DNA of 64,000 nt. Source: an uncultured Thermoanaerobaculia bacterium. Its GTDB lineage: Bacteria > Acidobacteriota > Thermoanaerobaculia > Multivoradales > Multivoraceae. Below are positions 1-52,067 of the stretch, piece by piece; positions within the stretch are counted from its first letter, which is position 1; each line of letters opens with the position of its first letter. The notes beneath the pieces are model-generated. The model did no database searches. It was not told where the DNA came from and saw only the letters and a list, made by a program, of their open reading frames with translations. The position numbers and the translations under genes were made by a program. The stretch covers positions 1,138,527-1,202,526 of the forward strand of contig OX638294.1 in the NCBI GenBank assembly GCA_951812325.1, read 5' to 3'.

Positions 1-27
1 GACTATCCGGTCCCGGCGTCCTTCCTG

Positions 28-19025: not shown

Positions 19026-19110
19026 ACGCGCCAGGCAGCCGCTCCAGACGGGTGGCAGTCCGGGACCGCTCTCGCCTCGATTCGCGGGCTCTTGCCACGG
19101 GCTGCCTAAG

Positions 19111-21077: not shown

Positions 21078-21089
21078 CCTAAGCCGGAA

Positions 21090-26336: not shown

Positions 26337-27071
26337 TCAGGTCTCGACCATCGTCTCCAGGTAGACGCGCTCCAGATCCGCCTGATCCAGGGCCTCCCGA
26401 TCCAGGATGCGCTCCATCCTGCCCTTGCGCATGATGCCGACCCGGTCGCAGAGACTCTGCGCCCGGAGCAGGTCGTGGGTGCAGATCAGGATCGCGGCGC
26501 CGTCGCAACGCATCCCGTCCAGCAGGGTCAAAAGGTCCGCTGCCGCCTTCGGATCGAGACCTGACGTGGGTTCGTCCAGGAGAATCGCGGGCGCGCTGCG
26601 AATCACCGCGACCGCCAGACCGACACGCTGACGCATGCCCTTCGAGAACCGGTCGACGCGCCGATCAAGGACATCCTCGGCCAGCCCCACACGAAGAAGC
26701 GCCTCGCGAACGCGGTCCCTGGTCGGCGACACTCGCTGGCCCACCGCGCTGAAGAACTCCGCGTTCTGCACCGCGGTCAACGCCGGGTAGAGGGCCACGT
26801 TCTCGGGAATGAGGTCGAGGCGGCGCTTTGCTCTGCGAGGCTCGCGGGCGACCTCGATCCCGTCGATCAGGGCGCGGCCACCCGTGGGTCGGATGAAGTC
26901 GAGGAACATGTTGATCGTCGTCGTCTTGCCGGCGCCGTTCGGCCCCATCATGCCGAGAATCTCTCCCGGCGCCACTTCGAAATCCACGCCGTCGACGGCA
27001 AGCGTGCCGTCCTCGAACCTCTTCGTGAGTCCGATTGCCTTGATCACTGTCGACTCTCCAATGTGGGTCAG
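26337..27071 (-). CDS. ABC transporter ATP-binding protein (copy B, intact)
   Basis: IKAIGLTKRFEDGTLAVDGVDFEVAPGEILGMMGPNGAGKTT (Walker A), LSKGMRQRV signature, and ILLDEPTSGLD Walker B. The start is taken as the TTG/GTG just after the upstream gene's stop; the ORF track's longer start at 27152 overlaps that gene. Confidence 0.85.
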   Translation of the reverse strand: MTHIGESTVIKAIGLTKRFEDGTLAVDGVDFEVAPGEILGMMGPNGAGKTTTINMFLDFIRPTGGRALIDGIEVAREPRRAKRRLDLIPENVALYPALTAVQNAEFFSAVGQRVSPTRDRVREALLRVGLAEDVLDRRVDRFSKGMRQRVGLAVAVIRSAPAILLDEPTSGLDPKAAADLLTLLDGMRCDGAAILICTHDLLRAQSLCDRVGIMRKGRMERILDREALDQADLERVYLETMVET

Positions 27072-28606
27072 CGTCGGCTGAGGAGGATGCCGCCCCGGAT
27101 CAGCGCCGCGAGCAGCGCCACCACGGCAGCCAAAAGAAGCAACGCCAGCCACGGATTGCGGGCTGCCGTCACGTGAATGCGAACTGTCTTGGGATCGCTC
27201 TCCACCAGACGATCACCAGCCAGCGTGCCGACGACGATCGTCCCTTCGTAGTCCCCCAGGATCACGTCGGCGGGCGGCGCAAGCGTCACGTTGACCGCTT
27301 CGCCGGTGCCGGGGGCGAGCGCATCGAACAGCCGCGGTTCCGCTCCCACCCGCCAACCGAACGGCGCCTCGACAACGACTTCCACCTGCTCGAGATCCAG
27401 ACTGCCCGCATTGACGATCCTGACTTCGAACGAGCCGGTATCGCCGCGCAGAATCTCCTGGTAGAGGTTCGCCGCCTCGACCTCGAGCGCGGCGACACCG
27501 CGCGGAATGAGCTCCAGATCCAGCCTGCCCCCGCCTCCGGCCGCGTCACGGTCGGGCTCGAACAACACGGAGAACGGAATCGACGTGCCCGGCTGCACCG
27601 CAGCCGTCGGTCGACTCGGCAACGTCAGCGCCAGACGCAGACTGCGGCTGGTCACCCCCTCCGACAGGAACATCTGACTGAACGTCGCCTCGGTCTCGGG
27701 ATCAAAGAGCCGCGCCGCAACTTCGGGCGGAAGACCCTCAAGCCGCACTCCGTACGTCGCGTCATCGACGTCGAAGCGCTCCACCTCAAGGACGAACTCG
27801 GCCTCTTCACCCAGTTCAGCGTCCAGGGCAAGCTGAGCGGAACGCACGACCAAGGGTTCCTCGGCGCCGGATCGCTTGCCCAACAGGACCTGTCGATCGT
27901 GGGTCTGATGATTGTAGCGAAGCTCGACGAGCAACTCCTCGACATCGGCCAGAAGAAGTCCGAAGTCGACGGTGGTCGGTTCGTCGAACAGCATCATCGG
28001 TACACGCTGCTCGTATGGAACGGAAACGATCGTCGGCTCCAGCAGCACGCCTTCCCGATGACCGCGAACGGTCTTGAGGCTGACGATCACGTTCGATACG
28101 CCGGTCGGAAGCGGCAGGTCCAGCAAACCGCCCGACTGCTGCTCGACCACTTCCGCCTCGACGCCGGAGGACCAGCGCGCCACCAGCTCCAGTTCGACAC
28201 GGGCCTCGCCGTCGGGCCGCCTGTACTTCCGGGCCGCGCGCAGGACGACCTCGGGATCCGCCGCGATCATCTCCAGATAGGCTTGTGCCAGATCGAGATC
28301 CGCGAGCCTGAGCTGCGCTTTCTCCGTATCCAGCTCCGCCTCGGAGAGCAGCTCGTTCTCGAACAGCTCCTCGGCGCGACCGAGCTGCTTCTCGGCTTCC
28401 TCGTACCTGATCCGGGCAGCCGCGTACTCGAGGCCAAGCCGACCCGAAGCCTCCGTCTGACCAGGCGCCGGCCCCGCCGCCGCGACGATCAGGAGGGCGG
28501 TAGCGGCCAGGCCCGCGAAACCGTCCCGGCGCCGCCTGAACCTGGCGGGCCAGGCCGCCTGGGGCCTGGCGGTAGCGGCGGCCGTTCGATCAAGAGCGGC
28601 GGGCAT
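27068..28606 (-). CDS. Periplasmic protein with N-terminal coiled coil, beta-sandwich-like repeats and a C-terminal TM anchor (component of the transporter locus)
   Basis: About 512 aa from the MMPAALDR start. There is an N-terminal signal/TM segment, a coiled-coil stretch (EEAEKQLGRAEELFENELLSEAELDTEKAQLRLADLDLAQ), and a C-terminal hydrophobic helix (WLALLLLAAVVALLAALI). It is absent from copy A apart from the fused fragment. Confidence 0.55.
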   Translation of the reverse strand: MPAALDRTAAATARPQAAWPARFRRRRDGFAGLAATALLIVAAAGPAPGQTEASGRLGLEYAAARIRYEEAEKQLGRAEELFENELLSEAELDTEKAQLRLADLDLAQAYLEMIAADPEVVLRAARKYRRPDGEARVELELVARWSSGVEAEVVEQQSGGLLDLPLPTGVSNVIVSLKTVRGHREGVLLEPTIVSVPYEQRVPMMLFDEPTTVDFGLLLADVEELLVELRYNHQTHDRQVLLGKRSGAEEPLVVRSAQLALDAELGEEAEFVLEVERFDVDDATYGVRLEGLPPEVAARLFDPETEATFSQMFLSEGVTSRSLRLALTLPSRPTAAVQPGTSIPFSVLFEPDRDAAGGGGRLDLELIPRGVAALEVEAANLYQEILRGDTGSFEVRIVNAGSLDLEQVEVVVEAPFGWRVGAEPRLFDALAPGTGEAVNVTLAPPADVILGDYEGTIVVGTLAGDRLVESDPKTVRIHVTAARNPWLALLLLAAVVALLAALIRGGILLSRR

Positions 28607-32783: not shown

Positions 32784-34160
32784 CTACCCGGCGGACGGCG
32801 GCTCGCCCGTCAGCAGGGACCGGTCCGGCGGCCGGCAGAACCAGATCGACGCCGCGCCCAGGACCGCCAGGGCAGCGAGGGTCCAGAGCGTGCCGGCATA
32901 GGAACCCGTTCGATCCGCCGCGGCGCCGGCCAGGGCCGGCCCGAGAGCGCCGATCACGCCGATCAGGGCGAGCCGGACGCCGGTCGTGCCGACGAACGCC
33001 GCCCGCCCGAAGAACCAGCCGAACACGACGACTTCACTCGTGTAGGCCGCGCCGTAGGCAGCGCCGATCACGACCACGCAGGAATACGCGACGACCGCGG
33101 AGGTCGCCGACACGAAGACCAACAGACCGACAGCGTTGACCAGCAGGGCCAGCGCGAGGACCCGCGTCGGCGCGATGAAGTCGCCCAGCGAGCCGCTCAG
33201 CCGGCCGAACAGACTGGCGCCCACCCGGAAGCCCAGGATGCTCGACACGGCCAACGTGGTGAAGCCGAGGTCTTCCAGATGGAGGCCGCCGTGAGCGGTT
33301 ACGACTCGCCACGGCACGGTGTTCGCCGCCGTCGCGAAGGTGGCGATCCAGAACTGGGGAGTGCGCAGAGCGCGCAGGACGGCGCCCTTCGGCGCCGACT
33401 TGTCGGCCGCTTCGCCGCGGCTCCCCACCGGCCGCGCCCCTGCCCGCCGACCCGGACCGCCAAAGTCGCCGGGTGCGCCGGCCATCTGGCCGGCTTCCGC
33501 GAAGGAATGCGCCGCATCCGGACCGCCGGCCTCGACCGGCGCCAGTCCGTCGCGACGCTGGCCGATGTCGCCAGGCTGGTTGCGGATGAAGAGCACGGCG
33601 ATCACCGCGACGAACAGCGAGATCCCGGCGACGATCTGCCAGCCGACCCGCCAGTCCCACGATTCAAGGACGAGCCCGGCCGCCGGCGACCACAGAAAGC
33701 CGACGATCGCGGCGCCGGTCAGGATGATCGCCGTCGCCCGCGCCCGATACCTGCGAAACCAGAACACCGGTATCGCCTGGGCGGGCAGCAGCGTCGAGAA
33801 ACCGATCCCGATGCCGCCGACGAGCGAGTAGCCGACGTAGAGCTCGGCCGCGCTCTCCGCCTGGCTCACCAGCCAGAAGCCGCTGGCGGCGCACAGCGCG
33901 CCCGCGGTCACCGTGGCCCGGATGCCCCAGCGGCGGATGACCGCCGCCGCAACCGGACTGACCAGGCCGTAGGCGAAGGTGAACGCCCCGAACATCTGGC
34001 CGATCTGCTGGCGGGTCAGCTCCAGATCGGCGATCAGCGAGGAGGCGAAGATGCCCAGGCCGTAGTAAGCCGGGGCGATTCCCAGGCCGTAGGTCACAAA
34101 ACCCACGGCGACCATCGGCCAGCCGTAGAACCTCCGCCCTGATCCGGGCGAAACGGTCAA
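32784..34160 (-). CDS. MFS transporter
   Basis: 458 aa with a 12-TM pattern and a cytoplasmic loop in the middle. Typical MFS organisation. Confidence 0.75.
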
Positions 34161-35197
34161 ACCGCCAGGTCCCCGGCCTGGCCGGCGCCGGCGGCGGGCG
34201 GCGAAGAATCAGGGTACAGGTGGCAGGCGACGCGGGCCGGGCCGACCGCCTCGAGCAGAGGCTCCACGCGATTGCAGTGGTCGAGCGCCTTCGAACAGCG
34301 CGGGTGGAAGCGGCAGCCGGACGGCGGGTTGCGGACGCTCGGCACTTCACCGGCGATCAGGTGGTGCGCCCTCGCCGCCTCGACCACCGGATCCGGCGTC
34401 GGTACGGAGGCCAGGAGCGCCTCGGTGTACGGATGCCTCGGCCGCTCGAACAGCTCGTCCCGCGTCGCGATCTCGACGATCCGACCGAGGTACATCACCC
34501 CGACCCGGTCGCTGATGTGGCGCACGACGGACAGGTCGTGGGCGATGAACAGGTAGGTGAGACCCAGCTTCGCCTGCAGGTCCATCAGCAGGTTGAGCAC
34601 CTGCGCCTGAATCGAGACGTCGAGCGCCGACACCGCCTCGTCGCAGATCAGCAGATCCGGCTCGAGCGCCAGAGCCCGGGCGATGCCGATCCGCTGGCGC
34701 TGGCCGCCCGAGAACTGGTGCGGGTAGCGGTTGGCCATCGACGGCAGCAGGCCGACCAGGTCGAGCAGTTCCGCGACCCGCTCCCGGAAGCGGCGGCGAC
34801 TCCCCGCCACGCGGTGGACCTTGAGCGGTTCGCCGACGATCTCCCGCACCCGCATCCGCGGATTGAGCGACCCGAACGGATCCTGGAAGACCATCTGCAT
34901 CCGCCGGCGAAGCGGCCGCAGCCGGCGCTGGCTGGCCTCCGAGATGTCCTCGCCGTCGAAGACGATGCGGCCGGCCGTCGGTTCCAGCATGCGCAGGATC
35001 GCCAGCGCCGTCGTCGACTTGCCGCAACCGCTCTCCCCCACCAGGCCGAAGGTCTCGCCGCGCCTGAGATCGAACGACACCCCGTCGACCGCCTTGACGG
35101 ATCCCGTCCGCCGCCGCATCAGCACCCCTTCGGTGACCGGGAAGTGGACCTTGAGATCCTCGACGCGAAGCAGCACCCGGTTGGCGGCTGAACTCAC
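34157..35197 (-). CDS. oppF: Oligopeptide/dipeptide ABC transporter ATP-binding protein OppF/DppF-like
   Basis: [14 protein letters not shown].., Walker [18 protein letters not shown], and a C-terminal oligopeptide-ABC domain (CRFHPRC). The start is the GTG that overlaps a TGA inside repeat copy 1. The ORF track's longer N-terminus (to 35689) is frame-incompatible junk. Confidence 0.8.
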
Positions 35198-35534
35198 GGC
35201 GCGGATTCCGCCTCGTAGCCGTAACAGGCCCAGGCCCGCGAGCCGGCGGCGGCTTCGAGCGACGGCGGCGCCGCCAGGCAGCGATCGTGCGTGTACGGAC
35301 AGCGCGGCGCGAAGGCGCATCCCGCGGGCAGCGCGGCGAGGTCCGGCGGTTGACCCTCGGCGGCTGAACTCACGGCGCGGATTCCCCCTCGTAGCCGTAA
35401 CAGGCCCAGGCCCGCGAGCCGGCGGCGGCTTCGAGCGACGGCGGCGCCGCCAGGCAGCGATCGTGCGTGTAGGGACAGCGCGGCGCGAAGGCGCACCCCG
35501 CGGGCAGCGCGGCGAGGTCGGGCGGTTGACCCTC
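35183..35534. repeat. Tandem direct duplication, 2 x 176 bp (about 97% identical), spanning the oppD 3' end and the oppF start junction
   Basis: GGCGGCTGAACTCACGGCGCGGATTCC... occurs at about 35183 and again at about 35359. The copies differ at only about 5 positions. Copy 2 holds the true oppD C-terminus. Copy 1 holds a duplicate 57-aa C-terminal fragment plus the oppF GTG start. Confidence 0.85.
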
Positions 35535-36362
35535 GATCGAGTCGAGGCGGCCGCCGCATTCACCCTCCAGGCGCGGCACGGAGCGAAGCAGCCCCTGGGT
35601 GTAGGGGTGGCGCGGGTCGGCATAGAGGGCCGCCGCGGGCCCGCTCTCCACGATCCGGCCGCCGTACATGACCGCCACCCGGTCGGCATAGCGGGCGACC
35701 ACGCCGAGGTCGTGGGTGATCAGGATGAGCGCCGAATCCGCCTCCCGGGTGCGCTCCTTGAGCAGTTCCAGGATCTGCGCCTGCACCGTCACGTCGAGCG
35801 CCGTCGTCGGCTCGTCGGCGATCAGCAGGCGCGGATGGCAGGCGAGCGCCATCGCGATCATCACCCGCTGGCGCATGCCGCCCGAGAACTGGTGGGGATA
35901 GTCGCCAAGCCGCTTCGCGGCATCGGGAATGGCCACCGACTCAAGGTGTTCCACCGCCTGTTCGAGCGCCTCCCTCCGGCTGAGCCCGCGGTGCAGTCTC
36001 AGCGGCTCGGCGACCTGCCGGCCGATCGTCAGCACCGGATTGAGCGAGGACATCGGCTCCTGGAAGATCATCGCGATGCGGTTGCCCCGCACCGACCGGA
36101 TGCCGGCATCGTCGAGCGCGAGAAGGTCCTGACCCTCGAACAGGATCCTGCCGTTCTCGATTTGTCCCGGGTCGGGAATCAGCCGCAGGATGGAGAGCGC
36201 CGACACGCTCTTGCCCGAGCCGCTTTCGCCGACGATCGCCAGCGTCTCGCCCGGCGCGACCTCGAGCGACAGCGACGTCACCGCCCTGACCTTCGGCCGG
36301 TTGCCGAACCCGCCGCGGAAGGTGACGTCCAGATTCTCGATCCGGAGCAGAGGTTCCGTCAC
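35370..36362 (-). CDS. oppD: Oligopeptide/dipeptide ABC transporter ATP-binding protein OppD/DppD-like
   Basis: [38 protein letters not shown]..; C-terminal CAFAPRCPY motif. Confidence 0.85.
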
Positions 36363-36398
36363 GACGGGTCAGCCGCCCTCACCGGAAGCAGGCCGCCA

Positions 36399-36479
36399 GG
36401 CAGCCCGTGGCAGAAGTCGCGCTGCATTCGAGCGGCCAAGCATCCCGCCCGGCATCGTTGCTCCTCGGTCGAACATGGC
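36399..36479. repeat. About 80-bp conserved element (copy 1), in the oppA-oppD intergenic spacer
   Basis: GGCAGCCCGTGGCAGAAGTCGCGCTGCATTCGAGCGGCCAAGCATCCCGCCCGGCATCGTTGCTCCTCGGTCGAACATGGC is nearly identical to 40444-40524. Confidence 0.8.
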
Positions 36480-36496
36480 CGGGCGCCCCGCCGCCA

Positions 36497-38356
36497 TCAG
36501 AAGCCCATCTCCCGCTTCAACTCCTGATCGATCCAGAGCCGCGCGTAAATCGGACCGGGACGCACCGCCCCGGCCCGCAGCTCGCCGCCGTAGTTCTTCA
36601 CCCACGGCCACCAGGCGGTGTAGAGGTAGGGCACGGGCAGCCACAGGTACGGGGCCTCGTCGAGCATCTCCTTCGTGATCTGCTTGACGATCCGCTGCCG
36701 TTCGACTTCGTCCCGAGTCAGGAACATCTCGTGGATCCGGCGGTCGAGTTCCGGGTCCGACCACATCGACGGATTCCAGGTCTGTCCGGTGACGAAGTTC
36801 TTGCGCAGCGTGGTCGTCGGATTCACGTGGCCGCTGCCCATCAGGTAGCCGGGCCCGTGGGTGCGGGTGGTCATCATGGACAGGTAGGCCGCGTACTCCA
36901 TCACCTCGATCTCGATCGTCACCCCGATCCGGTCCAGGTAGCTGGCCAGCAGCGGCGCCAGCTCCATCCGCATCGAGTTGTTGGCCGACACCTGCATCCT
37001 GAAGGTGAAGCCGTCGGGGTAGCCCGCCTCGGCGAGCAGGCGGCGCGCCTTCTCGGGCTTGTACTCGAACAGTTCCTGCACGGAAGGCGGCATCGCCTCG
37101 AGCGGCTCGAAGTAGCCCTCGAACGAGGGGTGCTGCGGATAGGCGAACAGCTCGGCGTTGCCGCCGAAGAACAGGTCGACGATCTCCCGCTGGTTCACCG
37201 CCAGGTTCATCGCCCGCCGCACTCTGACGTCGTCGAACGGCGCCTGGTCGACCCGCATGACCATGAAGGTGCCGCCGGTCGAGAGCCACCGTGACCAGCG
37301 CAGTTCAGGCGTCGTCTTCTTCAGATGATCGACGGCGATCCAGCGGATGTACTCGAGGATGTCCAGCTTCCCCGTGCGAATGGCCGTCAGGTAGGTCGCC
37401 TCGTCCTTGATCGTGCGGTACGTGAGTTCGTCGATGAAGGGGATCTCGTAACTCTCCCCGCCGATCGTCGTCCGATCCCAGTAGTCCGGCCGGCGGAGGT
37501 AGGTCTGCGAGTTGCCGGCAATGAACCGCTCCAGCGTGAAGGGACCGGAACCCGTCAGGTTGCGCCAGTCCTTCGGGTCCACGTCGCCAAGTTCGCGCGG
37601 CACGATGCCGGAGAAATAGCCGTAGCCGAACCGGTAGTCCCACTCGGCGTTGAACTCGCCGAACTCGAAGACGACCGTGTGGTCGTCGCGAGCCGCCACG
37701 CGGTCGATGTGGTCGAAGTAGGTCGGGATCGCCTTCGGACTGTCCCGCTGACGCTCGAAGCTGAAGACGACGTCGTGGGCGTCGAACTCGCGCGACTTCA
37801 TCACGCCTGGCTTGTCCGGGAACATGACGCCCCGCCGAAGCCGGATCGCCAGCGTCAACGGATCTTCCCATTCCCAGCTCTCGGCCAGCTCGCCGCGAAT
37901 CGTCTCGGCGGAAAGGTACGCCTCGGAAACGAAGCGCTGGTCACCGCCCCGGACCGCCGCCTGTTTAAGGTCGCCCACGAAGAGCTGCTCGTAGAGCATC
38001 CCCGTGTCGTGGTTCTGCTTCCAGTTCCAGTCCGTCGTGTCCCACGACAGCGCCGACAGCGTGACGTAGACCGTGCCGACGTTCAGTTCGCCGCCGTAGC
38101 GGGGCGGCTCCACCGGCGCCCGGCCCGACTCGAACGCCAGGTCGGCTCCCATGTCCGTGCCGCCGGGCGGCAACGCGGAACGGGCGGGGAGCGCTTCGCC
38201 GCACCCGCCGAGCAGGAGAGCCAGGGCTGCCGCGCAGAGCAGGGGAAGGGCGGCCCCGACCTCCCCGGCCAGCCCGACAACGCCCGAGGAGCGGGCGCGC
38301 CGGCAGCGCCGGTGGTGGGTTCCGATAGCCGCCGCGGCGGCGGAAAATCCCTGCAT
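36497..38356 (-). CDS. oppA: ABC transporter substrate-binding protein, family 5 (peptide/nickel/opine type)
   Basis: 619 aa. Lipoprotein-type signal (LLLGGCGE). SBP_bac_5 architecture. Confidence 0.8.
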   Translation of the reverse strand: MQGFSAAAAAIGTHHRRCRRARSSGVVGLAGEVGAALPLLCAAALALLLGGCGEALPARSALPPGGTDMGADLAFESGRAPVEPPRYGGELNVGTVYVTLSALSWDTTDWNWKQNHDTGMLYEQLFVGDLKQAAVRGGDQRFVSEAYLSAETIRGELAESWEWEDPLTLAIRLRRGVMFPDKPGVMKSREFDAHDVVFSFERQRDSPKAIPTYFDHIDRVAARDDHTVVFEFGEFNAEWDYRFGYGYFSGIVPRELGDVDPKDWRNLTGSGPFTLERFIAGNSQTYLRRPDYWDRTTIGGESYEIPFIDELTYRTIKDEATYLTAIRTGKLDILEYIRWIAVDHLKKTTPELRWSRWLSTGGTFMVMRVDQAPFDDVRVRRAMNLAVNQREIVDLFFGGNAELFAYPQHPSFEGYFEPLEAMPPSVQELFEYKPEKARRLLAEAGYPDGFTFRMQVSANNSMRMELAPLLASYLDRIGVTIEIEVMEYAAYLSMMTTRTHGPGYLMGSGHVNPTTTLRKNFVTGQTWNPSMWSDPELDRRIHEMFLTRDEVERQRIVKQITKEMLDEAPYLWLPVPYLYTAWWPWVKNYGGELRAGAVRPGPIYARLWIDQELKREMGF

Positions 38357-38360
38357 GACG

Positions 38361-39257
38361 TCAGGTTCCTCTCATTCGGGGGTCCAGCAGGTCGCGCAAC
38401 GCATCCCCGAAGACGTTTGCCGAGTAGACCACGACGGTAAGGCAGACGCCCGGCGCCAGCGCCAGCCACGGCCCCAGGTAAAGGTAGGTGCGGCCGTCGC
38501 CGCTCAGCATGCCGCCCCAGGTCGGCGCCGGCGGCGGCACGCCGAGACCCAGAAACGAAAGCGCCGCCTCCGACAGGATGACGGCGCCGACCCGGGTCGT
38601 GAACAGGACGATGACGACCGGCATCACGTTGGGCAGGATGTGACGACGCAGGATGTGGAAGGTTCCCGCGCCAATCGACTGGGCGGCGTGGGTGTAGACG
38701 TGCTCGCGCACCGAGGTCACCGCGCCGCGCACGATCCGCGATCCGGCGATGCCGTAGAGCAGCCCCAGGATGATGACGATCTGGATGATTCCCGGACCGA
38801 CCACGGACACGACGACAATCAGGAGCACGAGGTCCGGAAAGGTCATCCAGGCGTCCACCAAGCGCTGCGTCAGCATGTCGAACCAGCCGCCGAGGTAGCC
38901 CGACAGCACGCCGATCACGATCGACACGACGGTGGCCAGGGCGGCGGCGCAGAAGCCGACGATCATCGATAGCCGCGCGCCCATCAGGACCCGCGAGAAG
39001 AGGTCGCGGCCGAGGTGGTCCGTGCCGAGCAGGAACTGCGTGGACGGCGGCTCGAGCCGATGCGCCAGATCGGTCTCGTTGATGCCGTATGGCGCGAGCA
39101 CGCCGGCAAAGATCCCGCTCAGCAGGAAGATGACGAAGACGACGGCGCCGGCGGCGCCCAGCGGCTTGGTCCGGAACAGGCGGACGACAAAACGCCGCCA
39201 CCGCGACTCGCCCCGCCCCGGCAAAGGGTCGGTTCCGGCTGCGGCAACGGTGGTCAT
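38361..39257 (-). CDS. oppC: Oligopeptide ABC transporter permease OppC/DppC-like
   Basis: 298 aa with a BPD_transp_1 pattern and an N-terminal OppC-type extension. Confidence 0.85.
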   Translation of the reverse strand: MTTVAAAGTDPLPGRGESRWRRFVVRLFRTKPLGAAGAVVFVIFLLSGIFAGVLAPYGINETDLAHRLEPPSTQFLLGTDHLGRDLFSRVLMGARLSMIVGFCAAALATVVSIVIGVLSGYLGGWFDMLTQRLVDAWMTFPDLVLLIVVVSVVGPGIIQIVIILGLLYGIAGSRIVRGAVTSVREHVYTHAAQSIGAGTFHILRRHILPNVMPVVIVLFTTRVGAVILSEAALSFLGLGVPPPAPTWGGMLSGDGRTYLYLGPWLALAPGVCLTVVVYSANVFGDALRDLLDPRMRGT

Positions 39258-39264
39258 GCCGCGC

Positions 39265-40215
39265 TCATCCGTAGCGCACCTTCGGATCGAGCCAGCCGTA
39301 GCTCAGGTCGACCAGCAGGTTGATCAGGAGCACCGCGACGCCCACGACCAGGAAGACGCCCGAGATCACCGGGTAGTCCCGCTCGTAGACGCCCTCGAGC
39401 AACAGCAGCCCCATGCCGGGGATGACGAAGATCTGCTCCATCACGACGGCGCCGCCGATCAGCAGCGGCGCCTGCAGCCCGATCAACGTGACCACCGGAA
39501 TCAGCCCGTTCTTCAGCGCATGCCGGACGACGACCGCCCGCTCCCTCAGACCCTTGGCCCGCGCGGTGCGCACGTAGTCCTGACGCATCACCTCGAGCAT
39601 CATCGTCCGCGTCATCCGCATCGTGATCGCCGACATCGACAGTCCGAGCAGGATCGCCGGCACGATCAGGTGGGTCAGGTTGGCGACCGGGTCGACGAGA
39701 AACGGCGTGTACTCGAGTTCCGGCGCCCACCGCCACCAGACGGACGGAAAGACCATGACCAGGGTGCCTAGCCAGAACCCGGGGATGGCCAGCATGACGA
39801 GCGAGAACGACCGCGCCGCGTAGTCGAGAGTGGAGTCCTGCCGGGTGGCCGAGAAGATGCCGACCGGCACGGCGACGGACAACGCGACGACGAGTGCCAG
39901 GAACCCGAGTTCGAACGTCACCGGCAGCCGTTCCAGGATCTGCTCCGTCACCGGCGTGCTGCGCCAGAGCGACTGGCCGAGATCGCCCTGCAGCGCGCTG
40001 CCCGCCCAGCGAACGTACTGCGAGGCCATCGGCTGATCGAGCCCCATCGCCGCCTCGAGGGCCTCCCGATCGAGGGAGGTCGAGACGTCGTTCTGCGCCA
40101 GCATCAGATCGATCACGTCGCCGGGGATGACCCGCATCGAGACGAAGACGATCAGGCTGGCGAAGAACAGCGTCGGCGCCATTGCCAGCAGACGTCGCAG
40201 GATGTATGTCTTCAT
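39265..40215 (-). CDS. oppB: Oligopeptide ABC transporter permease OppB/DppB-like
   Basis: 316 aa: MKTYILRRLLAMAPTLFFASLIVFVSMRVIPGD is the typical OppB N-terminus. Confidence 0.85.
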   Translation of the reverse strand: MKTYILRRLLAMAPTLFFASLIVFVSMRVIPGDVIDLMLAQNDVSTSLDREALEAAMGLDQPMASQYVRWAGSALQGDLGQSLWRSTPVTEQILERLPVTFELGFLALVVALSVAVPVGIFSATRQDSTLDYAARSFSLVMLAIPGFWLGTLVMVFPSVWWRWAPELEYTPFLVDPVANLTHLIVPAILLGLSMSAITMRMTRTMMLEVMRQDYVRTARAKGLRERAVVVRHALKNGLIPVVTLIGLQAPLLIGGAVVMEQIFVIPGMGLLLLEGVYERDYPVISGVFLVVGVAVLLINLLVDLSYGWLDPKVRYG

Positions 40216-40443
40216 GTAAGGCGTCAGAGAATACAGGTGCGCGGAACCTGTCGGGGACGCCGGCGTCCCCGAAGGGCGACAGATGCCCGGTCAACCTCCG
40301 CCAACAGCGTGCTCGCCCATGCCCCAACTCCGCTTCGTCTCCGGCGCGCAGCCTCGCTGGGGGCCTTCTCCCGCGGGCGATGCGCCTGTCAACTCAAGGA
40401 CTCGGCCCCGACTTCGGAATGGCTCTGATCCTCAATGGCCCTG

Positions 40444-40524
40444 GCAGCCCGTGGCAGAAGTCGCGCTGCATTCGAGCGGCCATGCATCCCGCCCGGCATC
40501 GTTGCTCCTCGGTCGAACATGGCA
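40444..40524. repeat. About 80-bp conserved element (copy 2), in the divergent region between oppB and the Uma2 gene
   Basis: Same sequence as 36399-36479 with 1-2 mismatches. It is immediately followed by TATAAT and the ATG of the Uma2 gene. Confidence 0.8.
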
Positions 40525-40539
40525 GCGGCAGAACGTATA

Positions 40540-41583
40540 ATGACTCCGATGGTTGACCCCGCCCATTCCCCGGTTTCGTCGTCGCCGCATGAAGCGCGCA
40601 CCGACCCGGAGGCGACGCCCCTGGACCCGGCCGACTTTCCCGGCTGCAGGGCGATTCACATTCCGCGTAGCGAGATCGAGGACTACGAGGGACGCCTGGA
40701 GTACTGGGAGGCGCGCACGGAGACCGCGATGGTCGTGTGCGAGCCCACGACGCGCTTTCACGAGCAGCCTTCCCATCAGTTGGCTGGACTGACACGGCTG
40801 ATCGCCGCGTCCCGCGGATCGCTGATCCCGGCCTACGGAACGACCGATCTGGGCAAGTTCGACGACCAGGGCAGGTTCAGGGTGTTGATGCAGGCGGACC
40901 AGATTCTCTATCTCCACCCCTCACCCCCCGAGGAGTTGACGCCGCGGGTCGACGTGGACCGCGACGACCTCCCCGACGTGATCCTCGAAGTCGACTACTC
41001 CACCGACGTCCGCGTCCGCAAGCTGCCGCTCTACGAAGCCTGGGGCTTCCCCGAGGTCTGGGTCGACGTGCCCGACGCGCGCTATCCCCGTCGCCCCAGG
41101 TCCCGCCTGTCCGGCCTGACGATTCACCTGCTCGAAGACGGCCGCTTTCGGGAAGCCCGGAGCAGCCGCGCCTTCCCCGGCTGGACCGCTGAGGAGATCC
41201 ACCGGGCGCTCAACGAACATTCCACGTCACCGTCGACGGCCGCCGCGCTGCACCGCGTCGGCGCCGCCCTGGGCGCAGCCGAAGGCACCGGACCGGACGA
41301 CGATTCCTGGTTGCGGCGCCACCGCGAGGAAGGACACAACGAAGGCCTGAACCGGGGCCTGGAGCAGGGCCGTGCGCAGGGCCTGGAGCAGGGCCGAGCC
41401 GAAGCCCGGGCCAACACGGTCGCCGCTCTGCTGGAGGAACGGGGCATCCTGACCTCCACTGCCTTTCCGGAGCGGCTGGGGGAACTCGGACCGATCCCGG
41501 AACCCGACCTGATCCGCGCCGCTCTGAGGTGCGCCAGCGAAACGGAGTTCCTGGAGCTCTGCGCACGACGCAGGCCGAACTGA
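40540..41583 (+). CDS. Uma2-family (DUF820, PD-(D/E)xK-like) putative endonuclease with a repetitive C-terminal extension
   Basis: The core PDVILEVDYSTDVRVRKLPLYEAWGFPEVWVDVPD matches the Uma2 signature (PDLVIEVLSPS...Y...G..EYWIVD). The C-terminus has GLNRGLEQGRAQGLEQGRAEARA repeats. The ATG at about 40540 is preferred, because the longer ORF start lies inside the 80-bp repeat. Confidence 0.65.
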   Translation: MTPMVDPAHSPVSSSPHEARTDPEATPLDPADFPGCRAIHIPRSEIEDYEGRLEYWEARTETAMVVCEPTTRFHEQPSHQLAGLTRLIAASRGSLIPAYGTTDLGKFDDQGRFRVLMQADQILYLHPSPPEELTPRVDVDRDDLPDVILEVDYSTDVRVRKLPLYEAWGFPEVWVDVPDARYPRRPRSRLSGLTIHLLEDGRFREARSSRAFPGWTAEEIHRALNEHSTSPSTAAALHRVGAALGAAEGTGPDDDSWLRRHREEGHNEGLNRGLEQGRAQGLEQGRAEARANTVAALLEERGILTSTAFPERLGELGPIPEPDLIRAALRCASETEFLELCARRRPN

Positions 41584-41979
41584 CGCTCGCGGGTCGCCGC
41601 CCGCCCGGTGCGCCCGCGGCGCCGGCGAGCCGGGCAACGAGACTCAGGGGCGACGTGCCATTCGAGAAGCGGGCCCGCGTCGGCTCGTGGATGCCGCCGA
41701 GCCATGGCCCGGCTCCTTGGGCGCGGTCGGAAAGCACGAAGTCCACCGCCACGTTGCCCGACAGGAAACGGCGAACCTCCTCAAGTGTCTGATGCCCGTG
41801 GGTCTGGAGAGTCAAGGTCATTTTCCGATGATCCCCGATCCCACCCGGCTCACGCTTGTGTGTTCCACTTCAGGCCGAGGGAGGTTGATGTCAGGACGCT
41901 CACTTCTCGCTGGACAGCTCTGCCGACGCTACGGGGGCTGTTGGCTTGTATCCTGCATTCACTCCTTTCACCCTTTGCG

Positions 41980-44328
41980 ATGATGGCCAGAAACACCGAC
42001 AACCGGCGCCGACGGCGACGCCCGCAATGCGTTCGATCGGCAGCGCTGATTGCCAGCGTGCTCGGCTGCACCCTCTTCCTGCCCGCCGGAAAACCGGCAG
42101 GCGCCCAGGAACCCGTCGACCGGGAACAGCCCTCGACCGCGGCCACGGTCGATCCGATCGACGCGATCCCCGGCATCTGGATTCGCGACGAACGGCTGAG
42201 CGAGGACCCGATCGAGAAGCTGGAGGAGGCCTACGGCCAGACCTTCGGCGGCGGGCCGGGCCGGTCGCCGGGCGCGAACCCGGGCAGCGGACGCACCGGC
42301 AGCTTCGGCCGCGGCGGCCAGGGCGGTTTCGGCGGCGGCCGCGGCCGCGGCGGATTCGGCCGTGGCTCGGGCAGACAGCCGGGCGGCACGCAGGACGGCC
42401 CGTCGGGGATGCGCGAGATGGCGCGGGACCTCGCGGAGCGCCTGGACGTGCTGCTGATCCGCATCGACGACCCCCAGGTCCTCATCCGCAACGCGAAGCG
42501 CGAGGACCGCATTCTCTTCCTCGACGGCCGCGAAATCGCCGACGGTTTCGGCGGTCGCAGCCGTGCCCGCCTGCTCGGCGACTCGCTCGAAGTGGAGACG
42601 TCCTCCCAGGGGCGGCAGCGGATCGAGACCTTCTACCTGGAGGCGGACCGGCTCGTCCTCGTGACCGACCTGCAGGGAGGACGCTTCGCCGATCTCTCCT
42701 TTCGTACCGTCTACGAGCGTTCAGGCGACGCGCCGCCCCCACCGACGCCGGCGCCCACGACCGCGGCCCGGGCAAACGACGCCGCTCCAGGACCCGACGC
42801 AGACGTTTTCGCCGCCGAAGGGAGCGAGGTCGGCGTCCCTGCCGACTTCAACAGGGCGGACCACCTGCCGCCGGTCCGAGGCGCCGCAGAGCGAGGGACG
42901 GAACGCGCCGACACCTCTCGCAGCGCCCGGCCGGCGACGATCCGCATTCTGCCGCCCGAGAAGGGCCACCGGGAACTCCTGAGCGGCCGCGTCCTCATCC
43001 AGACCCTCACGATCGACCCGCAGATCGCCGTCGTCGAGTTTCTGATCGACGGCGAGCCGGCGGCCCGGGTCACGACGCCGCCGTTCGAGGCGCGGGTCCG
43101 CCTCGCCGATCCGCCCCGCGAGCAGACCATCGAGGCCAGGGCAACGAGTGCCCGCGGCGCCCGCGCGGGAGCCGACCGGATCGTTGTGAACCGCCTCGAT
43201 CCCCCGTTCGCGGTGCGCATCACCGGCATCACTCCTGATGAGACCGGCGGCCGGGCAACCGTCCGCGTGGAGGCCGGCATCTCGGTGCCGCGCTCCGAAA
43301 CGCTGGAACGCGTCGAGTTCTACCGCACGGAACGGCTGGCCGCTTCGTTCGACGATTTCGAGGGCGAGGCCGGGCCCAGCGGCGTGCGCTCGCTGGCGGC
43401 CGACGTGCCGACCGCCGGCGTGTCGTCCGAGGACTTCGTCCGCGTCGTGGCGCGCCTCGGCGACGGCCGCGAGCTCGAAGACGTCGAACTGCTCCAGGGC
43501 GCCGAGTTCAGCAGCGAGATCGACGTCCAGCTCGTCCAGCTCCAGGTTCTGGTCGTCGACCGCGGCGGCAACCCCGTTGCCGGCCTCGGGCCCGAGGACT
43601 TCGAAGTCCGGGAGGACGGTGAGCCGCGCCAGGTGGAGAACCTCTACGTCTCGGACGACGTGCCCCTTTCGCTCGGTCTTGCGATCGACTCCTCCGGCAG
43701 CATGGAGCCCATCTGGCGGCAGACGAACGCGATCGCAGCGGCGTTCTTCGACGGCGCGCTGACCTGGCGCGACCAGGCGTTCCTGGTCGATTTCGACTCC
43801 ACCCTGCGCCTCGTGCAGCCACTCACCGGGAGCAAGCCGCTGCTGGCCCGCGGCCTGGAACGGCTCTTCCCGCAGGGCAAGACCGCCCTTCACGACGCAA
43901 TCCTGTTCTCGCTGCTCCAGTACGGCGACGCGCCGGGCCGGCGCGCCCTGGTCGTCGTCACGGACGGCTACGACTCGAACAGCCGCTCCGACCCCACCCG
44001 GGCGATCGACTTCGGCAAGCGCCTCGGCGTCCCCGTCTACGTCGTCGCCATGCGCTCCGTCGGATTCGGCCCAACGACGATGGAGGACGCGAACCTCCGC
44101 AACACCATGCGGCTGATCACGGGGCCGACCGGCGGCCGCCTGTTCCAGATCGAGTCGATCGACCAGATGGCGCGCGTGTTCGACCACATCGAGAAGGAAC
44201 TCCGGCGGCAGTACGTGCTGACCTACTACAGCGAGCGCCCGTTCGGCGCCGCCGTGGAACCCGACGTGCGCGTGCAACGGAAGGGGCTCAAGGTACGGAG
44301 CGCCCTGCCGCTTGGGGCGATCGAGTAG
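41980..44328 (+). CDS. Secreted multidomain protein with a C-terminal von Willebrand factor A domain (paralogue 1)
   Basis: Signal peptide after MMARNTDNRRRRRRP. Gly/Arg-rich low-complexity segment. Central beta-sandwich-like repeats. C-terminal VWA with a DxSxS MIDAS motif (LAIDSSGSM) and VVVTDG. Confidence 0.7.
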   Translation: MMARNTDNRRRRRRPQCVRSAALIASVLGCTLFLPAGKPAGAQEPVDREQPSTAATVDPIDAIPGIWIRDERLSEDPIEKLEEAYGQTFGGGPGRSPGANPGSGRTGSFGRGGQGGFGGGRGRGGFGRGSGRQPGGTQDGPSGMREMARDLAERLDVLLIRIDDPQVLIRNAKREDRILFLDGREIADGFGGRSRARLLGDSLEVETSSQGRQRIETFYLEADRLVLVTDLQGGRFADLSFRTVYERSGDAPPPPTPAPTTAARANDAAPGPDADVFAAEGSEVGVPADFNRADHLPPVRGAAERGTERADTSRSARPATIRILPPEKGHRELLSGRVLIQTLTIDPQIAVVEFLIDGEPAARVTTPPFEARVRLADPPREQTIEARATSARGARAGADRIVVNRLDPPFAVRITGITPDETGGRATVRVEAGISVPRSETLERVEFYRTERLAASFDDFEGEAGPSGVRSLAADVPTAGVSSEDFVRVVARLGDGRELEDVELLQGAEFSSEIDVQLVQLQVLVVDRGGNPVAGLGPEDFEVREDGEPRQVENLYVSDDVPLSLGLAIDSSGSMEPIWRQTNAIAAAFFDGALTWRDQAFLVDFDSTLRLVQPLTGSKPLLARGLERLFPQGKTALHDAILFSLLQYGDAPGRRALVVVTDGYDSNSRSDPTRAIDFGKRLGVPVYVVAMRSVGFGPTTMEDANLRNTMRLITGPTGGRLFQIESIDQMARVFDHIEKELRRQYVLTYYSERPFGAAVEPDVRVQRKGLKVRSALPLGAIE

Positions 44329-49304: not shown

Positions 49305-52067
49305 CTATTCCTCGGCCTGCCGGCGCAGGTGGGGCACGATGCCGATGAGCCGTGCGACGTGGTGCTCGAACAGCGTGCCGTCGTCCGCCTCGTCCGCGTC
49401 CACGCCGACCGGGACCGCCGCCGCGGGGCCGTCCAGCAGGTCTCTGCAGACCAGCGGCGCGACGGCCGCGTTCCGCGGGCCGTCGACCCAGTACCAGCCG
49501 CCCGGCCTGGCGCCCTGGACGGACACCTCGCTGGCGATCGGATTGCCGGCGGCGTCGGTGCAGGAGTTGCTGTCCTCGCGCAGCAGCTGGACGACCAGGC
49601 CGTCATCGTTCGCCTGCAGCGTCTGCGTCGTGGTCTCGCCGCTGCAGGTGGTCCGCCACTCGACGGACTCGCCGTCGGTCGGCTTGACGACGATGCCGCC
49701 GGCGCCCCGCCAGTACGGTTTGACGTACTCGCTGCAGACCCCGTCATCGGGCTTCGGCAGGTGCGGCACGATGCCGATCAGCCGTGCGACCTCGTGTTCG
49801 AAGAACGTGCCGTTGTCCGTCACCTCCGTCTCCACGCCGGCGGGAATCGTCGCCACGGCGCCGCCCAGGTCGACTTCGGAGACCAGCGGCGCGACGGCGG
49901 CGTTCCGCGGGCCGTCGATCCAGTACCAGCCGCCGGGCTCGATGTCCGTGACCGACACCTCGCTGCGGACGGCATTCCCGTCATCGTCCGTGCACGCGCC
50001 CCGGCGCACCAGCTGGACGATCAGGCCGTCGTCGTTGGCATACAGCGTCTCCGTCGTGCGGGCGCCGCGGCAGGACATCCGGAACTTCACGGAAAGGCCG
50101 TTGGCCGGCTTGACGACGATGCCGCCGGTGCCCCGGAAGTACGGCGCCACGAACCGGTTGGGATCAAGCGGCTCCGGTTCCGGTTCGGGATCGGGGTCCG
50201 AGTCGGGATCGGAGTCGGGATCGGAGTCGGGATCGGGGTCGGGTTCCGGGGGAGGGGGACAATCGGGCGCCGGAGCCACGTCGTTGATCGTGGCCTCGGC
50301 GATCCACTTGTAGCTCCAGAGTACGTCGACCGGGCTCTTTACTTCGCTGCCGTCGGGGGTGACGTCGACCGAGTATGACTCCGTGGCCTCGACGCTGAAC
50401 GTCTCCGACCCTTCGTTGGCGCAGTCGGTGCGGGCGGCCAGCTCAATCGTCCCCGTTGTCGAGGTGAGGGAACTGCCAATCGACCCAAGCCTCACGGTGG
50501 CCGAGGTCGTGGCGGCGTAGTCTTCACTCGTGGCCGTGCCTTCCTCGGTGGCGTAGACCACCTCCAGAGGAGGCGCCCCGCTGATCTGGGGGAAAACCGA
50601 GTAGCTCACGTCGAAGCTCAGATCCGTCCCTTCGTCCCCCTGCGCGTCGTCGACGCCAAGACACGAGTAGACGCTCAGGTCGCCGTTGTTCCGCCGCGTC
50701 GTCGTGGCGGACGGCAGGTTCCCCGTGAGACTCGTCTCGCACAGGGACAGATGCTGCAGGTTGGTCAGGGTGCCGAGGCTGGAGGGAATGGCGCCGGTAA
50801 AGCCGTTCGACCCGAGGAGGAGGTGCGTGATGCCCGTGGCGGCGGTCGCGTTGTTGATGTTCCCGGTCATCTTGTTGCCGCGGAGGTTGAGCACCCTCAT
50901 GCCGGTGCTGGTGATGCTGGGGATGCCCCCGGTCAAGCTGTTGAAATGGGCCGAGATCTCTTGCAGGTTGTTGCCGGTTGGCAGGGCCGGGATGGCCCCT
51001 GTCAACTTGTTGTCGTTGACGACGAGCTGCTTCAGTTTCACTAGGGTGGACAGGGCGGGGATTTCCCCGGTCAGGTTGTTGCCGACGCCTCTCCCGTCGA
51101 ATCGGAAGTTGTTGCCCACATTGAGACGCTCCAGTCTCACGAGGGCGGACAGATCGGGGATTCCCCCGGTCAGGTTGTTGTCGTTGAGATCGACCTCCCT
51201 CAGGAAGATGATGCCGTTCAACGGCGGGATGCTCCCGGTGAACTTGTTCCTGCCGAGAGCGAGCCACGTCAGGCTGCTGACGTTGGTAATCGCTCCGATC
51301 TCCCCGGTCAGCGCGTTTCTGCTGAGATCGAGTGTCGCCAGGTCGTGGAGGCCGCTGGGATTGGGGAACTCCCCGGTCAGCTCGTTGTCGTTGAGAAGCA
51401 CATGGATCAGGGCGGTGAGGCCGCTCAACGACGGGATGGACCCGGTCAGCTCGTTGTTGTCGAGAAAGATACGCTCCAGGCTGGTCAGGGCGCTCAGATT
51501 CGGGATTTCCCCGGTCAGGGCGTTCCCACTGAGCCTGAGGTACGTCAGATTGGTCAGGTTGCTGAACGATGCGGGGATTCCCCCGGTGAACTTGTTTCTC
51601 CGGAGGTCGAGGTGCGTCAGGTTGGTCAGCGCGCCCACCCACGCCGGGATCGGCCCGGGGGTGAGGTTGTTGTAGGTGAGCCGGAGATACGTGAGTGCGT
51701 CGAGGGCGCTCAGATCGGGGAGCGTCCCCGTAATGTTGTAGCCAGGGCCGAGCGTGAGCCGGGTGACGCGGCTCCTTTCGCCGTTCATGCCGATCGATTG
51801 CCACCGATGCATGCCCCTGTTGCGCGCCCAGTTCAGGCTCGTGTTGTCGCCCGAGCCGAGAGTCAGCGCGGCCTTGAAGGCCAGCAGGGCGGTGCAGTCG
51901 GCAGCCAGCATGTCCCGCTTGGCGTTGCTCAGAGTCCTGCTCCCCACGGCCCCAATGACGGCTACGTCGCCCCTCACGCAGGTTGGCGACGTCTGGGCGT
52001 GGGACGCGCCGCCGAACAGGCCGAGCGCCAGCGCCAGGACGAGGACCTTGAGCACCAGACCCGGCAC
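49305..52067 (-). CDS. Secreted leucine-rich-repeat protein (plant-specific-type LRRs) with two tandem C-terminal repeat domains and an Asp/Pro-rich linker
   Basis: 920 aa. Signal peptide. About 17 repeats of 24 residues, LxxLxxLxLxxNxLTGxIPxxL (for example LTNLTYLRLSGNALTGEIPNLSAL). Linker PEPDPDPDSDPDSDPDSDPDPEPEPEP. Two roughly 140-aa C-terminal repeats (YFRGTGGIVVKP... and YWRGAGGIVVKP...). Confidence 0.8.
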   Translation of the reverse strand: MPGLVLKVLVLALALGLFGGASHAQTSPTCVRGDVAVIGAVGSRTLSNAKRDMLAADCTALLAFKAALTLGSGDNTSLNWARNRGMHRWQSIGMNGERSRVTRLTLGPGYNITGTLPDLSALDALTYLRLTYNNLTPGPIPAWVGALTNLTHLDLRRNKFTGGIPASFSNLTNLTYLRLSGNALTGEIPNLSALTSLERIFLDNNELTGSIPSLSGLTALIHVLLNDNELTGEFPNPSGLHDLATLDLSRNALTGEIGAITNVSSLTWLALGRNKFTGSIPPLNGIIFLREVDLNDNNLTGGIPDLSALVRLERLNVGNNFRFDGRGVGNNLTGEIPALSTLVKLKQLVVNDNKLTGAIPALPTGNNLQEISAHFNSLTGGIPSITSTGMRVLNLRGNKMTGNINNATAATGITHLLLGSNGFTGAIPSSLGTLTNLQHLSLCETSLTGNLPSATTTRRNNGDLSVYSCLGVDDAQGDEGTDLSFDVSYSVFPQISGAPPLEVVYATEEGTATSEDYAATTSATVRLGSIGSSLTSTTGTIELAARTDCANEGSETFSVEATESYSVDVTPDGSEVKSPVDVLWSYKWIAEATINDVAPAPDCPPPPEPDPDPDSDPDSDPDSDPDPEPEPEPLDPNRFVAPYFRGTGGIVVKPANGLSVKFRMSCRGARTTETLYANDDGLIVQLVRRGACTDDDGNAVRSEVSVTDIEPGGWYWIDGPRNAAVAPLVSEVDLGGAVATIPAGVETEVTDNGTFFEHEVARLIGIVPHLPKPDDGVCSEYVKPYWRGAGGIVVKPTDGESVEWRTTCSGETTTQTLQANDDGLVVQLLREDSNSCTDAAGNPIASEVSVQGARPGGWYWVDGPRNAAVAPLVCRDLLDGPAAAVPVGVDADEADDGTLFEHHVARLIGIVPHLRRQAEE
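49335..50170. repeat. Intragenic tandem duplication, 2 x about 420 bp (about 75% identical), encoding the two C-terminal repeat domains of the LRR protein
   Basis: GCAGGTGGGGCACGATGCCGATGAGCCGTGCGAC... at about 49335 and GGCAGGTGCGGCACGATGCCGATCAGCCGTGCGAC... at about 49755. Confidence 0.7.
50170..50265. repeat. 12-bp microsatellite-like repeat (GGGATCGGAGTC)n encoding the (DPDS)n linker
   Basis: GGGATCGGGGTCCGAGTCGGGATCGGAGTCGGGATCGGAGTCGGGATCGGGGTCGGGTTCCGG. Confidence 0.7.

Follow-up and report, generated by a model that had tools for sequence, protein, structure and literature searches.

Two near-identical 84-nt repeats in an opp operon of a Thermoanaerobaculia bacterium are probably single-arm copies of a dispersed, MITE-like palindromic family

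Two 84-nt sequences in an opp operon of an uncultured Thermoanaerobaculia bacterium are, with a probability of roughly 0.85, solo-arm copies of a non-coding, palindromic and MITE-like family of dispersed repeats that occurs in Thermoanaerobaculia related to 'Candidatus Multivorans'. A preliminary description of this DNA had proposed for them either a cis-regulatory RNA of the operon or a REP-like mobile repeat. The second proposal was right in kind, as to a mobile repeat; the family itself is better called MITE-like, being a 166-nt palindrome with terminal inverted repeats, and is not a REP in the strict sense.

The repeat pair and its setting in the opp operon

The window referred to throughout is the whole stretch of DNA that was analysed (64,000 nt, or 64 kb), and all positions are counted from its first letter unless a locus name (L001 and so on) precedes them. 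Pfam assignments define in it an operon of the order oppB-C-A-D-F on the minus strand, flanked by an ORF of opposite direction:

39265-40215, minus strand: oppB, permease gene and first gene of the operon (Pfam; orthologous gene calls)
38361-39257, minus strand: oppC (Pfam)
36497-38356, minus strand: oppA, gene of the SBP_bac_5 solute-binding protein, with its stop codon 14-17 nt before copy 1 of the repeat
35370-36362, minus strand: oppD (ABC_tran and oligo_HPY), with its start codon 33 nt after copy 1
34157-35197, minus strand: oppF, with a GTG start at 35197
40549-41583, plus strand: Uma2-like ORF (Pfam Uma2 sub-threshold, E = 0.003)

A repeat search across the window returned a pair of 84-nt sequences, at 36396-36479 and at 40440-40523, that agree at 82 of 84 positions (98%, two mismatches). 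The near-identical pair of about 80 bp reported beforehand is therefore real, and the coordinates given for it were off by only 3-4 nt. Pairwise alignment shows the edges of the repeat to be sharp, the DNA surrounding the two copies being dissimilar, and a 40-mer from the repeat has exactly two matches in the 64-kb window versus none in 100 shuffles. The copies are direct repeats, spaced 4044 nt apart, that exactly bracket oppB-oppC-oppA: copy 1 is located between the oppA stop (36497) and the oppD start (36362), and copy 2 between the oppB start (40215) and the Uma2-like ORF on the plus strand. Two further statements of the preliminary description hold as well, namely that both copies share the strand of the opp transcript (minus, as oppB-C-A-D-F) and that they are non-coding, since they lie outside real genes and their internal small ORF has no conserved coding. 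For two copies a shared orientation has a chance probability of 0.5 and therefore carries no weight. The features of the two copies are as follows:

about 36396-36482, minus strand: copy 1, half element (right arm only) in the oppA-oppD spacer, corresponding to positions 82-165 of the 166 in the long-form profile
36401-36425, minus strand: right terminal inverted repeat of copy 1, GCAGCGCGACTTCTGCCACGGGCTG on the minus strand, from the alignment with long forms
36397-36400, minus strand: flank tetranucleotide CCTG after the terminal repeat of copy 1
36447-36470, minus strand: core 24-mer of copy 1, GACCGAGGAGCAACGATGCCGGGC, used as search seed
40440-40523, minus strand: copy 2, half element (right arm only), 225 nt upstream of the oppB start, corresponding to profile positions 85-166
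40445-40469, minus strand: right terminal inverted repeat of copy 2, from the alignment with long forms
40441-40444, minus strand: flank tetranucleotide CCAG after the terminal repeat of copy 2
40491-40514, minus strand: core 24-mer of copy 2

An independent assembly speaks to the danger, also raised beforehand, that one of the copies was produced in assembling the contig. The long-read contig L001 (ENA ERZ18545498) is 99.2% identical to window 28376-49255 (20.9 kb) and contains both copies, including the same two copy-specific bases, and an assembly artefact is therefore excluded. Close to copy 2, a perfect TATAAT stands at 40536-40541, 13 nt beyond the end of the repeat and 7 nt before the ATG (40549) of the Uma2-like ORF; it could serve as a leaderless start for that ORF, with the -35 region inside the repeat. 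The consensus promoter scan made no call at this TATAAT.

A dispersed family of imperfect palindromes

The 24-mer GACCGAGGAGCAACGATGCCGGGC was searched against a collection of species-representative genomes, where it matched 31 other loci in seven MAGs, none of them the window's own opp locus; a search of this kind favours copies that keep the 24-mer, hence copy number and conservation as given here are seed-biased. The matches include 19 in CBDBDB01 and seven in CATOTG01. All host labels are Thermoanaerobaculia or 'Candidatus Multivorans', save for one Vicinamibacteraceae MAG, and the matches are split by strand into 18 plus and 13 minus. The closest match is 89% identical to window 1-596. 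With a profile built from full-length copies, 35 copies were found in the seed-matched loci and, in the 64-kb window, only the two already known. Searches of JGI metagenomes with two seeds, and of viral contigs for the repeat, returned no matches.

All family copies in the matched loci sit outside real coding regions, three apparent gene overlaps being products of crude ORF-based gene calling or of frameshift errors in a long-read contig. The genes beside them are mutually unrelated (AMP-binding, SufBD, S1, COX2, TonB receptor, S9 peptidase, H+-PPase, RuvB, PQQ and PolyA polymerase) and none belongs to peptide transport. About 13 copies have their terminal CTAG overlapping the TAG stop codon of a gene that runs into the element; either end can be involved (8 versus 5 by orientation), which is to be expected of a TA-containing target preference in a genome of 68-70% GC.

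Most copies are imperfect palindromes of 166 nt with terminal inverted repeats of about 25 nt that begin CAGCCCGTGG. In the alignment of 22 long forms the layout is CTAG-CAGCCCGTGGTGGAAGTGCGCG...CGGGCC...CGCGACTTTCGCCACGGGCTG-CTAG, the left end mirroring the right, and RNAalifold folds these 22 sequences into a single hairpin of 53 pairs with CGGGCC as the apex loop. Each arm of the long form measures about 80 nt, and the two are complementary over about 60 nt. Compensatory changes are present in the terminal repeats (GTGGTGG/CGCCAC versus GTGGCAG/CTGCCAC, GC to AU in three sequences) as well as in the apex stem (AGTT/AACT, ATAT/ATAT and ATAC/GTAT, in 7-8 sequences). Both the long form (166 nt) and the window copies (84 nt) fall within the size range of MITEs (50-800 bp) and are devoid of coding capacity.

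The 4-nt flanks of the copies were taken from the same long-form alignment. CTAG-like (YTAR) tetranucleotides usually border the element, in the form of CTAG or one-off variants of it, and five long copies have CTAG on both sides. CTAG being itself palindromic, these flanks are equally compatible with a target-site duplication and with a longer inverted repeat. Three copies have identical flanks that are not palindromic (CCAG/CCAG in L002 and L022, CTAC/CTAC in L024), and these suggest a 4-bp target-site duplication; the flanks of the L023 copy (TTGA/TCAA) are a better fit to an extension of the inverted repeat than to a duplication. Around the two window copies no target-site duplication is recognisable.

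Some individual copies merit separate mention. The one in L008 (JAAXHG010000164.1) is full-length and very similar to the Thermoanaerobaculia copies, while its MAG is labelled Vicinamibacteraceae, of a different class, which points to horizontal transfer or else to a binning or labelling problem. Those at L006:4387-4620 and L004:7351-7514, from two 'Ca. Multivorans' genomes, are orthologous to each other; in L006 the right arm is interrupted by a further sequence of about 80 nt, rich in hairpins, which may belong to a second small repeat family inserted into this one. Our search of the literature on MITEs in Acidobacteria and on Thermoanaerobaculia/Multivorans found no description of such a repeat family, and to our knowledge the palindromic family of Thermoanaerobaculia is new to the literature.

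Empty sites and lineage-specific DNA in orthologous opp loci

For comparison we used contigs of OppA orthologues (81-94% amino-acid identity), which amounted to eight loci, L033 to L040, of 80-95% nucleotide identity. The order oppB-C-A-D-F occurs in all eight and is therefore ancestral. The repeat profile found no copy in any of the eight loci, at either position. Around copy 1 the alignments of L038 (94-95% nucleotide identity) and L033 (92-93%) are collinear with the window and break only at 36398-36482, a stretch matched by only 9 nt in L038 and 4 nt in L033. The oppA-oppD spacer measures 134 nt in the window versus 3-89 nt in the relatives, an insertion polymorphism that is filled in the window and empty in all eight relatives. 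Copy 1 reads in these alignments as a clean insertion of 84-85 nt with both of its flanks intact.

Copy 2 stands in a different kind of surroundings. Upstream of oppB, homology extends through about 21 codons of a divergent VWA-like gene and is lost beyond window 40375; the features on either side of this breakpoint are:

40376-41982 (1.6 kb), no strand assigned: lineage-specific segment with copy 2 and the Uma2-like ORF, replacing the VWA (672 aa) and TauE genes of L038
40216-40375 (about 160 nt), minus strand: conserved oppB upstream region, which includes a palindrome and about 21 VWA-like codons and has copy 2 outside it
40253-40270: perfect palindrome GGGGACGCCGGCGTCCCC in the oppB upstream region

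L033 likewise has a 672-aa VWA gene at the site of window 40376-41982, and a remnant of the lost VWA gene, about 21 codons long, is visible at window 40309-40371. The placement of copy 2 before oppB, as first described, is correct in that it lies 225 nt upstream of the gene; it is not in the conserved leader, being situated beyond 40216-40375. The palindrome of that leader is kept as GGGGAC-N6-GTCCCC in most relatives (L033, L034, L036 and L038), and this region, a likely operator, is the better candidate for true opp regulation. Beside the palindrome, just before the oppB start codon, there is a conserved CCTGTAT(T/C)CTC motif.

Other changes in the operon came to light in the same comparison. 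In 'Ca. Multivorans' OZ244152 and relatives (L034/L035/L040:4006-5004) a Fic-domain gene is inserted between oppC and oppA, and in L033 unrelated sequence enlarges the gap between oppB and oppC to 110 nt (L033:3993-4101). The spacers between the genes of the opp operon are recurrent sites of insertion. A tandem duplication of 176 nt (window 35183-35534, two copies 98% identical) lies across the junction of the oppD stop and the oppF start. Both genes are intact despite it, oppD ending at 35370 and oppF beginning with its GTG at 35197, and their separation is about 170 nt in the window versus a 4-nt overlap in L033. L001 also has the duplication; it appears to be missing from L033, L034, L036 and L039, in which the stretch aligns as a single copy.

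RNA structure, coding capacity and promoters

The Rfam check of the copies that had been advised beforehand came back empty: there were no matches in the whole window at gathering thresholds, nor, with E allowed to reach 1, in three loci that contain full-length copies. Folding and covariation had been advised likewise. Both strands of both window copies fold less stably than the shuffled mean (MFE, z of +0.8 to +1.3), so that single copies do no better than shuffles. In the right arm a local hairpin has three covarying pairs (15 cells), a level reached by none of 500 shuffles; of these pairs one cannot form in 11 of 28 sequences, and in full copies the left arm gives the cleaner covariation with the apex bases of the right arm. 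Covariation in the right arm is the usual and expected behaviour of a palindromic repeat, and the signal, modest as it is, would still allow some structural constraint on the right arm alone.

The core 24-mer contains GAGGAG-N6-ATG, which resembles a ribosome-binding site and start codon and opens a small ORF of 28 codons in copy 1 and of 36 codons in copy 2. This ORF is rejected as a conserved coding sequence: the flanking DNA fixes where it stops, and substitutions at its variable codons alter the encoded residue (V/H/L; LS/LL/RS) in parallel with pairing in the stem. Simple scans for sigma-70 promoters and for intrinsic terminators, in and beside both copies, predicted nothing.

A resident insertion sequence with the same site preference

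Elsewhere in the window there is an insertion sequence whose target preference is that of the repeat family:

19104-21084, plus strand: insertion sequence with a DDE_Tnp_1 transposase ORF at 19271-20989 (572 aa), terminal repeats (G)CCGAAGTTC and CTAA on both sides

This element abuts a degenerate relic of a repeat end, at about 19063-19107, and is seated on the terminal CTAA of that relic. Related copies of the insertion sequence are found at L012:3228-5208, L012:1-~1040 and L018:~323-2303, with CTAG/CTAA flanks in L012 and L018, and in L012 the insertion sequence is placed precisely at the terminal CTAA of a repeat copy. A preference for CTAG/CTAA sites is thus common to the insertion sequence and the repeat family. 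A solo left-end fragment of the insertion sequence, 144 nt long, was also noted at L032:99-242.

As the parent of the repeat, the resident DDE insertion sequence is rejected for now: its ends are (G)CCGAAGTTC versus CAGCCCGTGG in the repeat, and internal similarity is absent. With these differences in ends and interior it is at most a putative partner, which shares a target preference with the family. Fuzzy matching over about 0.4 Mb (the matched loci and the window) found no autonomous partner with matching terminal repeats, the only trace being the relic at about 19063-19107.

The window holds further repeats of its own. The paralogous ABC ATPase genes at 21090-21914 and 26337-27152 contain repeats that are 98-99% identical (21075-21374/26322-26621 and 21759-21864/27983-28088); these indicate that an ABC transporter cluster was recently duplicated as a segment, and one of the resulting copies adjoins the insertion sequence. 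At 50850-51750 there are 69-nt periodic repeats of the leucine-rich-repeat type within a coding region, and at 63312-63506 four to five tandem repeats of 39 nt code for a tract rich in lysine, alanine and proline.

Origin of the half copies

Both window copies run from the apex loop to the right terminal repeat and thus consist of the right arm only. The same form recurs at unrelated sites: the half copies in L009, L014, L017 and L021 start at profile positions 80-83 and those named L013b and L015 at positions 74-76, while L016 and L028 hold partial copies. Half copies do not all begin at one base: their left ends scatter over a few nucleotides at the apex, in at least six independent loci within a 6-nt stretch, and in this they resemble the outcome of repeated breakage or deletion at a hairpin tip and not a defined transposon end. 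This recurrent half-palindrome form is the only mildly unusual feature of the family. Each window copy has one terminal repeat, in place of the two-ended inverted repeat of a MITE, which the long form of the family does possess; without the second inverted repeat the window copies are therefore fragments or derivatives of a MITE-like element and not complete MITEs. For copy 1, which keeps both flanks of the empty site, insertion of an arm, or a very precise loss of the left arm, is easier to accept than a random truncation.

The filled and empty sites show a family that is mobile or was so until recently. Both copies reached the lineage of the window recently, after its split from the relatives of 92-95% identity: copy 1 is an insertion of 84-85 nt in the oppA-oppD spacer, and copy 2 lies in the 1.6-kb replacement segment upstream of oppB. 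Beyond this we propose the following history. The family would be mobilised in trans, now or formerly, by a DDE transposase preferring CTAG/CTAA, a step to which the resident insertion sequence at 19104-21084 lends support. In a genome of 68-70% GC such tetranucleotides are scarce and cluster at TAG/TAA stop codons, and stop codons would for this reason become targets. Half copies would then be derived from breakage or deletion at the hairpin apex. The copies would be selfish passengers with no dedicated opp role: copy 1 would be co-transcribed in the opp mRNA and copy 2 lies beyond the conserved promoter region, so that any effect on opp expression is presumably incidental. As direct repeats of 84 nt that lie 4 kb apart, they could also support recombinational loss of oppBCA.

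Alternative explanations

One further reading holds that a single arm is itself the mobile or functional unit, whether by insertion through apex cleavage (an unusual route of transposition or repair) or as an RNA hairpin module retained downstream of genes. Its bases are the left ends that fall within 6 nt of the apex in at least six loci and the clean insertion of copy 1; we think it quite unlikely. Were the hairpin module real, copy 1 would make expression of the oppA binding protein independent of that of the oppDF ATPases. Another reading regards the family as a REP/REPIN-type repeat, moved by a RAYT (IS200/IS605-like) transposase through single-stranded hairpins, whose singlets have decayed or been exapted, copy 1 shielding the 3' end of the oppA mRNA and so raising OppA relative to OppDF. 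In the malE-malF intercistronic region a REP protects the upstream binding-protein message from 3' exonucleases, and copy 1 is likewise directly downstream of a binding-protein gene in an operon. The palindromic doublet architecture with frequent singlets, the compensatory changes in the stems, and the extragenic position of the copies, often just after stop codons, are all in keeping with such an origin. Several properties of the family go against it, however: the arms measure about 80 nt instead of 20-40 nt, the non-palindromic direct flanks of 4 nt in three copies suggest a cut-and-paste duplication, the hairpins of half copies are weak for their GC content (z about +1), and close relatives manage without the element. 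Its ends, moreover, read CTAG-CAG and do not carry the GTAG or CGTC heads by which REP superfamilies are defined (PMC3733652). In the loci inspected no RAYT gene came to notice. All in all we rate a REPIN/RAYT origin as quite unlikely.

The remaining two explanations concern the operon itself. That the copies arose in one local event, a segmental duplication or a Campbell-type recombination that placed oppBCA between them, would agree with direct repeats at a spacing of 4044 nt that exactly bracket oppB-oppC-oppA and with the other recent rearrangements nearby (the 176-nt tandem duplication and the 1.6-kb replacement segment). Yet all relatives have the ancestral order B-C-A-D-F and lack the repeat, and the DNA on each side of copy 1 agrees with that at the empty sites. 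The bases that distinguish the copies (GCTTGG versus GCATGG) are both found among family members elsewhere, which makes the 98% identity between the copies no closer than that among copies of the CATOTG01-type subfamily; a local event is very unlikely in consequence. Least credible of all to us is the opp-specific cis-regulatory RNA (attenuator, riboswitch-like or sRNA target) before oppB and oppD that the preliminary description had put forward. In its favour one may cite that both copies are non-coding and on the transcribed strand of the operon, and that a Shine-Dalgarno-like GAGGAG and an ATG lie inside a possible hairpin. Against this, eight orthologous loci, among them operons of 92-95% nucleotide identity, have the element at neither position, and copy 2 is outside the conserved oppB upstream region. 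The element occurs at no fewer than 31 loci, beside unrelated genes and in both orientations relative to them, the very outcome (at least 31 loci; 18 plus and 13 minus) that had been named in advance as speaking against a regulatory element. No Rfam family matches it and its fold does not rise above shuffles. A regulatory RNA would be expected to keep its position among orthologues, to accompany one gene class, and either to fold stably with covariation or to match a curated family. The repeat does none of these and the proposal is refuted; solo-arm copies of a mobile repeat family are the preferred reading.

Comparison with known repeat systems

For annotation this means that the repeat should be masked as a mobile-element family and not entered as an opp leader or riboregulator, whereby a wrong annotation is avoided. 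The family is of use as a marker of recent genome change in Thermoanaerobaculia, it illustrates how TA-containing targets (TAG stop codons) channel insertions in a high-GC genome, and it offers a small test case for the decay of a palindromic repeat into half copies.

MITEs are defined as non-coding, mostly intergenic elements of 50-800 bp with terminal inverted repeats of at least 10-15 bp and a target-site duplication of 2-10 bp that are mobilised in trans (PMC11602168). The long form of our family is similar in being a non-coding, multi-copy and intergenic element of 166 nt, with inverted repeats of about 25 nt, filled and empty sites, and CTAG-like flanks of 4 nt; the window copies differ from MITEs in being one-armed, with the second inverted repeat missing. 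Insertion sequences of the IS5 type make a 4-bp target duplication at YTAR/CTAG. The resident element at 19104-21084 behaves in this way and the flanks of the repeat family share the CTAG/CTAA preference, whereas the terminal repeats of that element differ from those of the family and there is no internal similarity between them.

Examples of REP, BIME and REPIN sequences are known between the cistrons of binding-protein transporter operons. With these our family has in common that it consists of extragenic palindromes, with doublets that form hairpins, common singlets and compensatory changes in the stems. Its unit is about four times longer, however (arms of about 80 nt and 166 nt in all, versus 20-40 nt), its ends read CTAG-CAGCCCG, with GTAG only in L019, and its direct flanks of 4 nt suggest insertion of the DDE type. 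The Correia elements (CREE) of Neisseria and the ERIC/IRU sequences of enterobacteria are imperfect palindromes of about 100-160 nt that form long hairpins, occupy TA-containing sites between genes or inside operons, are co-transcribed, and come in full and shortened variants. The family described here resembles them in folding as a long-hairpin imperfect palindrome and in having full and shortened forms. It is distinct from them in sequence, to which theirs bears no similarity, and in its host phylum, the Acidobacteriota; its shortened form, unlike theirs, is not an internal deletion, but half of the palindrome, ending at the apex.
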